Source: Myxococcota bacterium | GTDB taxonomy: Bacteria; Myxococcota_A; UBA9160; UBA6930 | Direction of reading: 5' to 3' | NCBI GenBank assembly: GCA_965223705.1 | Contig: OZ245015.1 | Span: 1,824,001 to 1,888,000 of the forward strand | Length of the DNA stretch: 64,000 nt | Shown: positions 62,794 through 64,000 of the stretch, piece after piece | Layout: each line of letters opens with the position of its first letter | Position numbering within the stretch: the stretch's first letter is position 1 | Program-made: the position numbers and the translations under genes | Notes under the pieces: model-generated | The model's database searches: none | What the model was told of the DNA's origin: nothing | What the model saw: the letters and a program-made list of their open reading frames with translations, nothing else

Positions 62794-63807
62794 CTACGCC
62801 TTCGCCGGAATCCACGGGGACACGTACACGCGTACGGAGCCACCGATGCCCTTGAGGTCGTCGGCGTCGATCAACATGCGAAACGAGTGGAAGAGATCCG
62901 GGTTCGACACTTCGGTCTCGTCCAGAACCGGTTGGGTGGCCACGATGCCGGCCGCCGGCGCGAGTTTGAGAATCCGCGAAGCCCGTGGGACACAGGGGCC
63001 GATCAAACCGACCCCGCGGCGAAAGCGGCTGCCCACCATGCCGACGACGACACGACCGTGATCGAGTGAAAGCCTCGGGAGCGGCAACGCGGGGTTCTTG
63101 TCGCGCAGGGCGACCAACCGACGGCGCATTTCGAACGCGGCAGGGACGGCCTCTCCGGGACCTTCGAAATAGAGCAGGGCGCCATCTCCTTCGAAGTCGT
63201 GGACGTCGCCGCAGTGGTAGACGCCGATCTCCGCGACGGTCTCCATGAACTCCTGAACCAGCGCGAGCACGTCGGGCGGCTCGAGTTCCATGACCAGCGG
63301 TGTCGAGTCGACCATGTCGACGAACAGCACCGTCAGGTCGCGCTGAAACGGAAGCTCGCGCCCGTGGAGGAACGAGCGATCTTCGAGGCTCGAGAGAAAC
63401 GGGTCGCCGCCCCCGGCATCGAGCTCCGGAGGCGAGTCGCCCGCCACCCAGGTGTACGAATCGCGGCGGCTCGCGTCGACGTTGGGTGTGTCCTGTCCCG
63501 CGAGGGCCCATGCGGAATAGCCGCCCGCGAGGACCGCGACGTCTCGGTAACCCAGGCTGAGGAGGAGCCGCGCCACGCGCGAGCTTGAAGACTCGCCGCT
63601 TCAGAGGCAGTACGCGACGATCGGCGTGCCCCGATCGATGTCGGGCAGCAGGATCGGATCGTCGTCGAGAAAAATCGGGACCGCATTCGGCAAACCCTTG
63701 GGCAGCTCCTCGAAGCCTTTCCGTCGCCGGACATCGAGCACCAGAGGTGCGTCGCTCGAGGCGAGCATCGGAGCCAGCAGGGCCGGCGTGAGGGTGTGGA
63801 TCGACAT
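62794..63807 (-). CDS. rhodanese-class III nucleotide cyclase fusion, probable selenoprotein (UGA at 63601-63603)
   Basis: ORFs 63601-63807 and 62794-63576 are in the same frame, separated only by TGA. Read-through gives LDVRR...IVAYCL-U-SGESSSSRVARLL..LGY.DV..LAGGY.AW (complete rhodanese fold), then LFVDMVDST...GDG...G...G...ASR (cyclase). Confidence 0.8.
63566..63585 (-). promoter_or_regulatory. putative bacterial SECIS hairpin
   Basis: At +16 to +35 after the UGA: AGC-U(bulge)-CGCGC-GUG(loop)-GCGCG-GCU, with the apical loop starting GU at +25. Confidence 0.55.
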
Positions 63808-63854
63808 GTTTTCTCCTCCCCGGAACGGTAGCGGTCCGCGCTACGCTCCGGCCT

Positions 63855-64000
63855 ATGCGCAGGTTTTTTGCCGCTGTTCTCGCCATCGCCTTCCCGGTAG
63901 CCGCTCCGGCCGTCGATTTTCCGATCGAAGACGCCGAAGTGCGTTCGTGCATCGATCGCTCTCTGCCCGAAAAAGCGATGACGCAGGAAATCGAGGTCCA
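63855..64000 (+). CDS. secreted protein, 5' partial (possibly LolA-like lipoprotein-sorting family)
   Basis: MRRFFAAVLAIAFPVAAPA signal peptide, then ...EVRSCIDRSLPEKAMTQEIEV; open to the window edge. Confidence 0.55.
   Translation, partial: MRRFFAAVLAIAFPVAAPAVDFPIEDAEVRSCIDRSLPEKAMTQEIEV

Follow-up and report, generated by a model that had tools for sequence, protein, structure and literature searches.

A predicted selenocysteine-containing rhodanese domain fused to a class III cyclase-like domain in a Myxococcota genome

Rhodanese selenoproteins with a C-x-U motif (U, selenocysteine; hereafter Sec) are a known predicted kind, since the NCBIfam model NF041203 ('rhodanese_LYCAU', rhodanese-related (seleno)protein) and entries in two selenoproteome reviews describe such a family: it is 'form 3, CxU' in the available text of PMC13188914 and 'COG0607 form 2' in that of PMC9312934, and its motif would be L-Y-C-A-U, to judge from the name of the model and the 'CxU' entry in that part of PMC13188914. 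Among class III nucleotide cyclases, the available text of PMC4626032 describes a characterised enzyme from Mycobacterium phlei that is activated by copper and carries a Cys-rich YHS sensor. Here we describe a gene of a Myxococcota bacterium (assembly GCA_965223705.1, contig OZ245015.1) that lies within the 64,000-nucleotide stretch from position 1,824,001 to 1,888,000, which we call the window, and we show computationally that its product joins a rhodanese domain containing Sec to a domain with the class III cyclase fold. NF041203 is the best NCBIfam model for the window protein and for all four relatives tested, and the likeness extends to the rhodanese fold, the alternation of Sec with Cys and the Y-C-x-U/C motif, which in the window protein reads A-Y-C-L-U; the NF041203 family is itself one of predicted selenoproteins of unknown function. 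There are differences, however. The window protein scores 47.4 bits and the four relatives 53-63.5, all under the 115-bit cut-off; the model covers a single domain of 126 positions, whereas the window protein adds a cyclase-like domain of about 180 residues; and the U-x-U form that we find among its relatives is unlisted, 'UxU' having 0 occurrences in the available text of PMC13188914, from which 'sensor', 'signal transduction' and 'second messenger' are likewise absent.

Standard listing of open reading frames (ORFs) gives the gene as two pieces of 68 and 260 residues because a TGA at 63603..63601 breaks the frame. The two minus-strand ORFs (63807..63601, 68 aa, terminated by the TGA, and 63576..62794, 260 aa as listed) have a common frame with only the TGA between them, as the initial annotation of the stretch had recognized in describing a single gene split at 63601-63603. 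Read-through gives a product of 337 residues in which the sequence around codon 69 is IVAYCL-U-SGESSSSRVARL. Full-length orthologues of 315-351 aa can be aligned with the window protein over its entire length, and conservation is uninterrupted over codon 69 in an alignment of 16 orthologues. The parts of the gene are these:
62794..63807, minus strand: the whole gene, 337 codons plus TAG (ATG at 63807..63805, TAG at 62796..62794), collinear with its orthologues.
63813..63819, minus strand: Shine-Dalgarno sequence GGAGGAG, 5 nt before the ATG at 63807, from direct reading of the sequence.
63601..63603, minus strand: in-frame TGA, codon 69, very probably read as Sec and aligned with the canonical rhodanese catalytic Cys.
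63607..63609, minus strand: TGC codon of Cys67, the first residue of the C-x-U pair; TGA in 13 related loci (the U-x-U forms).
63505..63768, minus strand: rhodanese homology domain, residues 14-101 (Pfam PF00581, E 1e-9, 39.2 bits against a cut-off of 22.2).
63566..63585, minus strand: hairpin resembling a Sec insertion sequence (SECIS), 7 bp with a bulged U and the loop CGUGG, at +16 to +35 after the TGA and within the SSSRVAR codons.
63355..63504, minus strand: linker, residues 102-151, of which 127-146 are low-confidence or disordered in the structural model; a conserved FLP...LP.RR precedes the cyclase fold.
62815..63354, minus strand: class III nucleotidyl cyclase homology domain, residues ~152-331, from profile and Foldseek fold matches.

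The relatives of this gene carry either TGA or a Cys codon at codon 69. Six-frame searches (E <= 1e-20) found a full-length homologue in 14 of the order's 193 genomes and in 8 of 401 genomes sampled from the phylum, the window's genome being counted in both, and among 17 full-length orthologues codon 69 is TGA in 13 and TGT or TGC in 4. A scan of one genome per species, whose results overlap with that set, gave 78 related loci: 30 have TGA at codon 69 only (C-x-U), 13 have it both there and at the Cys codon two upstream (U-x-U), 26 are C-x-C forms and 9 have no usable rhodanese part. Over the 69 scorable loci, codon 69 is thus TGA in 43 and Cys in the remaining 26. The picture in a large protein database is of Cys at both pair positions in all 115 full-length homologues, and the commonest homologue motifs, VAYCLCSGEASSSRVA and VVYCLCSGQASSTRVA, agree with the initial annotation's statement that related domains carry YCxCxxExxS. 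The annotated ORFs of the five closest database relatives (65-91% identity) start just downstream of codon 69, which is what miscalling of a Sec form would produce; since gene callers and NCBIfam currently truncate or mis-start the genes, protein databases do not show the Sec forms.

The machinery for Sec insertion is present in the window's genome: we detected selA (486 bits, cut-off 267.9), selB (320.7 bits, cut-off 242.25), selD (269.6 bits, cut-off 125) and a tRNA-Sec that scores 78.2 bits, above the curated cut-off, and that ARAGORN reports as tRNA-SeC with anticodon UCA. Every TGA-form genome tested carries selA (17/17, plus the window's own), which includes 12 of 12 in the same order or class and five of five U-x-U genomes; selA was also found in all four Cys-form genomes from that order or class and in none of five cultured Cys-form gammaproteobacteria. 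We conclude that the TGA at codon 69 is very probably a Sec codon, as the initial annotation had proposed from the window alone: it alternates with Cys at an otherwise invariant site, the genome encodes selA, selB, selD and tRNA-Sec(UCA), and a SECIS-like hairpin is conserved behind it.

The U-x-U loci (L097, L098, L103, L104, L105, L112, L114, L116, L121, L124, L127, L128 and L136) have the motif Y-U-T-U-P-E-D-A-S-S-A-R, a vicinal double-Sec motif, and in these forms a single hairpin would need to serve two UGA codons 6 nt apart. Two further loci are irregular. In genome G025 (L059/L047, L029/L092) the TGA-form copy hits a run of N past residue ~168, and its TGA was counted; a cyclase-only match with 56% identity lies ~125 kb off, and the two may belong to one split gene, or the match may be a second copy or arise from the assembly. 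At L129:3001-3769 the motif VVAYAYC is followed by loss of the frame, and the locus looks like a frameshifted or decayed member.

A bacterial SECIS is a stem-loop that follows the UGA closely on the 3' side and has G/U in its apical loop. The hairpin with a bulged U that the initial annotation had placed at +16 to +35 is present at 63585..63566, with the pairing order A-U, G-C, C-G, bulged U, C-G, G-C, C-G, G-C, and RNAfold recovers it. The other Sec forms have a clear helix at the homologous position, with the loops CGUGC, CGGGC, CGGGU or GGU. Mean folding energy over +13 to +45 and mean z against synonymous resampling are -15.1 kcal/mol and -1.16 for C-x-U forms (n=31), -14.6 kcal/mol and -1.45 for U-x-U forms (n=13), and -11.0 kcal/mol and -0.22 for C-x-C forms (n=26); the loci for which at most 10 of 200 resamplings fold as well number 10/31, 3/13 and 2/26, respectively. 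When 40 Sec forms are aligned without gaps, 89.7% of the helix cells are paired, as against 18.6-62.5% for slid registers of the helix. One pair is C-G in 22 of these sequences, U-A in 14, U-G in 3 and unpaired in none, and both of its changing bases in the C-G/U-A exchange are synonymous third positions, one in a Ser codon and one in an Ala codon. Cells altered on both sides of the helix number 17, versus 6.0 +/- 2.6 in shuffles (0/500 as high), so that covariation with compensatory changes supports the helix across these 40 forms.

Within the rhodanese domain, Sec69 occupies the catalytic position. The domain matches profiles of the PDB entries 1yt8 (3.4e-24) and 6mxv (1.3e-16), and Sec69 is aligned onto the catalytic Cys in domain 2 of 1yt8 and in the two domains of 6mxv, so that the loop U-S-G-E-S-S-S of the window protein overlies the C-x-G-x-x-R-S of solved rhodaneses; the exception is the 3tp9 profile, whose alignment puts Cys67 on the catalytic Cys by way of a 2-residue gap. 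Cys67, Cys/Sec69, Ser74, Ser75 and Arg77 are invariant or nearly so.

We regard the class III cyclase fold of the C-terminal domain as secure. A profile of 16 orthologues matches the class III cyclases OaPAC (3e-12) and CyaC (1e-11), as well as Cya2, CyaB and Ma1120, and some database homologues carry a precomputed PF00211 match. The AlphaFold model of the protein has a mean predicted local distance difference test (pLDDT) of 84.7 and a predicted template modelling score (pTM) of 0.71; in Foldseek it matches 4yus with E 6.6e-14, and target-normalised template modelling scores are 0.78 for CyaC (1wc4_A) and 0.85 for Ma1120 (5d0e_B). We assigned the catalytic positions by alignment to OaPAC and Ma1120 and counted residues over 121 family sequences:
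Asp164: metal-binding Asp, in 120/121.
Asp208: metal-binding Asp, in 121/121.
Arg278: transition-state Arg, in 116/121.
Asp204: position of the base-selecting Lys (Lys/Glu), aligned to the Lys of 'EVTKFIGD' in OaPAC; Asp in 121/121.
Gly267: the Asp/Thr position, mostly Ala or Ser in relatives.
Pro274: position of the transition-state Asn; Asn 72, His 31 and Pro 17 of 121.
The initial annotation's class III cyclase therefore stands as regards the fold, both metal-binding Asp and the Arg; it does not as regards the base-selecting Lys/Glu, the Asp/Thr and the Asn positions, all of which are non-canonical in this copy. Among the family loci the Asn position could be parsed by motif in 50 of 70, with Asn at 42 of these, His at 5 and Pro at 3. 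The five closest relatives of the window protein share its Pro274, and we take this variant to be under selection because it is conserved at 65-91% overall identity. Cys199, shortly ahead of the GDV motif, is invariant.

To relate the forms to one another we built a tree by a quick method from 69 copies, using the sequence downstream of the motif and leaving out L075, whose translation is 104 aa. Sec and Cys have been exchanged at least 4 times on this tree, and C-x-U and U-x-U forms are intermingled; the copies nearest to the window's by tree path are Myxococcota Cys forms. The copy at L134 has an extreme branch length of 10 and an odd composition. Several copies (L101, L104, L110, L127, L128, L136, L065, L108 and L134) come from bins titled 'uncultured Enterobacteriaceae', 'Spirochaetales' or 'Cytophagales' and nest among Binatia or Myxococcota sequences; these titles are probably unreliable labels.

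The genes around the window's copy include a transporter with a cyclic-nucleotide-binding tail. Three of the neighbours are placed as follows:
Window 63855-64000, continuing into L048:1856-5357, plus strand: LolA-like lipoprotein-sorting gene, divergent from the selenoprotein gene, with start codons 47 nt apart, and after it the transporter ORF.
L048:5378-5944, minus strand: Fur-family regulator, three genes from the selenoprotein gene.
The LolA-like gene is followed by a 932-codon ORF for an MMPL/RND-type transporter with a C-terminal cyclic-nucleotide-binding domain (E 1e-12). On the opposite side of the selenoprotein gene lie genes for a PMT_2 glycosyltransferase, a GT4 glycosyltransferase, an ATP-grasp protein and an AMP-binding enzyme.

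We surveyed with Pfam 150 ORFs flanking 34 orthologue loci (12 C-x-C, 15 C-x-U and 7 U-x-U). Copper or heavy-metal genes adjoin 8 of the 12 C-x-C loci, the neighbours including multicopper oxidase, DUF411, MerR, HMBD/YHS P-type ATPases, DUF326, a cation-efflux protein and a ZIP transporter, and metal genes adjoin 3 of the 15 C-x-U loci (MerB at L067, HMBD/YHS proteins at L106 and L108). At the orthologue L122 the next gene encodes a cyclic-nucleotide-gated ion channel, and at L126 it is a PilZ gene. In Nevskiales and related gammaproteobacteria (L068, L070, L072, L074, L084 and L089) the Cys-form gene lies within same-strand copper-resistance clusters made up of multicopper oxidase, cytochrome c, methyltransferase, the Cys-form gene, DUF411, MerR and P-type ATPase; a Tn3-family transposase near the cluster at L074 suggests a mobile island.

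Taking these data together, we think it likely that the gene is intact and that its product is a chalcogen switch in which a Sec69 rhodanese sensor is joined to a class III cyclase-like domain. UGA69 is very probably decoded as Sec by SelA, SelB, SelD and tRNA-Sec, and the intragenic hairpin ~16-35 nt downstream would direct this. In the predicted layout the N-terminal rhodanese domain, with Sec69 as the chalcogen at the catalytic position and Cys67 as a second thiol, is followed by a linker of ~50 residues and the class III cyclase homology domain, and this order follows the 'sensor then cyclase' layout usual among bacterial class III cyclases. We infer that the Cys67-x-Sec69 pair serves as switch and input and a dimer of the cyclase-like domains as output: the pair would capture a thiophilic ligand, or form a selenenylsulfide or persulfide, and the captured ligand or the new bond would alter dimerisation of the cyclase-like domains and hence the output of a nucleotide second messenger. 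The product, if there is one, is probably not ordinary cyclic adenosine monophosphate (cAMP), since the base-selecting positions hold Asp and Gly/Ala/Ser and not Lys and Asp/Thr; the neighbouring transporter is a candidate receiver of the messenger in the window's genome. The complete version of this proposal, in which a Cys-x-Sec (in relatives, Sec-x-Sec) sensor of a soft metal or of reactive sulfur or oxygen species switches a non-canonical cyclase whose non-cAMP messenger is read by the neighbouring transporter, we put forward tentatively, as possible rather than probable.

A number of observations weigh against the proposal in one or another of its parts. Alone, the window hairpin is unexceptional, so that its weight rests on the orthologues: the 71-nt fold after the TGA has z +0.95 and its minimum-free-energy structure chose another hairpin, and in synonymous-codon resampling 41 of 200 sequences equal the window hairpin in folding. 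Moreover, GC-rich codons for the S-[AS]-R-[AV]-A peptide (S-R-V-A-R in the window) tend to give hairpins in any case, and there are Cys forms that fold equally well (for example L074, at -18.3); for these reasons we treat the hairpin as supporting and not decisive evidence. As to the output domain, Pfam matched no cyclase domain on the whole protein, the C-terminal 198 residues alone reach 17.4 bits with PF00211 against a cut-off of 21.9, and three of the six canonical catalytic positions deviate (Asp for Lys, Gly for Asp/Thr, Pro for Asn). The window's domain may accordingly be enzymatic but weak, may act on another substrate or may be no enzyme at all, and its cyclase activity is putative in view of Asp204 at the Lys/Glu position and Pro in place of the catalytic Asn. 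Next, the LolA-like protein, the MMPL transporter and its cyclic-nucleotide-binding tail have no match at E <= 1e-5 beside 93 orthologue loci, and neither has the PMT_2 glycosyltransferase; the best match of any neighbour among the orthologue loci is that of the cyclic-nucleotide-binding domain at L122 (1.3e-4). As none of the neighbours matched beside orthologues, the synteny of the window is not conserved. For the Sec forms the metal link is weak: metal genes stand beside 0 of the 7 U-x-U loci surveyed, and no copper gene adjoins the window's selenoprotein gene. Finally, the window protein sits on a long branch (1.47, versus a median of 0.2), which, together with the absence of a full-length homologue from the other 32 genomes searched in its own family and a Leu at the position of the nearly invariant Trp81, fits acquisition by transfer or fast divergence.

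That the TGA is a real stop, whether in a pseudogene, through a sequencing error or as the boundary between two genes (a 68-residue rhodanese stub and a cyclase), would account for the splitting of the gene by standard ORF calling and for the starts past the TGA that database gene callers gave the closest relatives. We nevertheless judge this explanation close to refuted, because TGA stands at codon 69 in 43 of the 69 scorable loci, from different species, with Cys elsewhere, because sequence conservation is continuous through it, because a stub of 68 residues would stop within the rhodanese active-site loop and because the genome has the Sec machinery. The base is moreover identical in four run-level assemblies: from 63400 to 63807, TGA included, there are 0 differences among the contigs of four separately assembled runs of one sample, which is probably the source sample, so that they are not independent of the source but do argue against an assembly slip. 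A different challenge concerns the output, in that the C-terminal domain might be no cyclase but a dimerisation or nucleotide-binding module, or the maker of an unusual product, with the protein acting mainly as a sulfur/selenium transferase or metal handler. The residues at the three deviant positions speak for this (Asp throughout the family at the Lys/Glu position; Ala, Ser or Gly at the Asp/Thr position; His or Pro in part of the family at the Asn position, with Pro in the window protein and its 5 closest relatives), as does the PF00211 score under the cut-off. We think it unlikely all the same, given that the two metal-binding Asp residues and the transition-state Arg hardly vary, that the entire GDVxDFEGDGA block is conserved as in active enzymes, that the Pro variant is itself conserved among the closest relatives and that proteins binding cyclic nucleotides are encoded beside the window's gene and beside L122.

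As to the signal of the switch that we propose, a soft metal, above all Cu(I), is our leading guess, though we would give it somewhat less than an even chance. A thiophilic ligand, copper first, is favoured by the gene context of the Cys forms, by the non-basic loop and by the precedent in the literature, and soft-metal sensing is at least as likely as redox or persulfide sensing because metal-resistance genes stand beside 8 of the 12 Cys-form loci. The Fur-family gene three genes from the window's copy is a further pointer to metal. The signal may instead be an oxidant or sulfane sulfur, which we hold to be nearly as likely as copper, and that it is something else altogether seems to us improbable without being far-fetched. 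If the protein is a sensor of redox state or sulfane sulfur, Sec69 would take up sulfane sulfur, or would be oxidised and resolved by Cys67 to a selenenylsulfide, and so gate the cyclase; this, too, is a reading that we can entertain but not call probable. It draws on the location of Sec at the canonical persulfide-forming position, on the invariant resolving Cys two residues away, on the diselenide that U-x-U forms could form and on the lack of metal genes near most Sec-form loci; the selenoprotein motifs in the table of PMC13188914, in its available text, are also mostly redox pairs such as CxxU and UxxC. Telling against it are the placement of Cys-form orthologues in copper-resistance clusters, the lack of any sulfur-oxidation or persulfide-handling gene beside the 34 loci examined, and the composition of the active-site loop. 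Arg and Lys in the rhodanese loop usually hold thiosulfate-type anions, and the loop S-G-E/Q-A/S-S-S is without them.

Outside the window, the same genome encodes another rhodanese whose reading frame holds a TGA at the corresponding site (L002, G000:C1:144602-147913; gene at ~L002:862-1821, plus strand). Its motif is LVCT-U-PSEASSARVA, and its fusion partner is a DedA/VTT membrane domain at the N terminus (Pfam VTT_dom 4.5e-12, Rhodanese 1.4e-10); with NF041203 it scores 63.5 bits, again under the cut-off. The hairpin after its TGA, of 7 bp with the loop CGGGU, is similar to the window's. The terms 'DedA' and 'VTT' are absent from the available text of PMC13188914.

How far the fusion is new can be judged from the literature covered. 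The word 'cyclase' does not occur in the available text of the selenoproteome reviews PMC13188914 and PMC9312934, exclusive of their supplements, and literature searches for rhodanese or selenoprotein in combination with cyclase gave nothing relevant among the matches listed, although supplementary tables may list further rhodanese selenoprotein forms. The initial annotation's remark that no selenoprotein cyclase has been described is upheld to that extent, while its C-x-U rhodanese selenoprotein was in itself already known as NF041203. Both the rhodanese-cyclase selenoprotein fusion and the U-x-U form thus appear undescribed in the literature covered. In JGI the Cys forms bear the name 'class 3 adenylate cyclase/rhodanese-related sulfurtransferase', and since this name holds both parts, the fusion has been seen by annotation pipelines, though we did not find it as an object of study.

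Compared with characterised cyclases, the window protein shares with OaPAC (a BLUF domain joined to a cyclase homology domain; 4yus/5x4t), CyaC (1wc0-1wc6) and Ma1120 the fold of the catalytic domain (Foldseek E ~1e-13), both metal-binding Asp and the Arg, and with OaPAC also the N-terminal position of a sensor ahead of the cyclase. A thiol-rich metal sensor attached to a cyclase has a precedent in the M. phlei YHS enzyme, but its sensor is C-terminal, according to the available text of PMC4626032. None of these four has a Sec rhodanese sensor, and the window protein departs from them in having Asp for Lys, Gly (Ala or Ser in most relatives) for Asp/Thr and Pro for Asn.

Compared with rhodaneses, the closest parallel in architecture is TsoB (NF045694, rhodanese/DsbD fusion-like; 'form 5' in the available text of PMC13188914), in which a Sec rhodanese is likewise fused to a second module; however, the match of the window protein is marginal (13.1 bits, E 0.018), the TsoB motif is UxxxxU and its partner is a membrane thiol-disulfide transporter, not a cyclase. 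The single-domain sulfurtransferases, such as GlpE of E. coli (1gmx) and the chromate-resistance rhodanese ChrE (NF033833), have the fold and the catalytic chalcogen position in common with the window protein, and ChrE is the second-best NCBIfam match, at 26.3 bits for the window protein and 42.6 for a Cys-form relative; both differ in having Cys and not Sec, no Cys at -2, another loop composition and no fused output domain. The C-x-C, C-x-U and U-x-U forms make up a natural series from at least 69 species-level genomes in which sulfur and selenium can be compared in one switch, and Cys-form hosts available in culture for genetics include Sinimarinibacterium, Solimonas, Hydrocarboniphaga and Spectribacter. 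The selenoproteins entered in the tables of PMC13188914, in its available text, are mostly of redox type. A Sec sensor domain that controls the output of a second messenger would form a new functional class among selenoproteins and, if our proposal is true, would be the first selenoprotein to serve as a sensor in signal transduction rather than as a redox enzyme.

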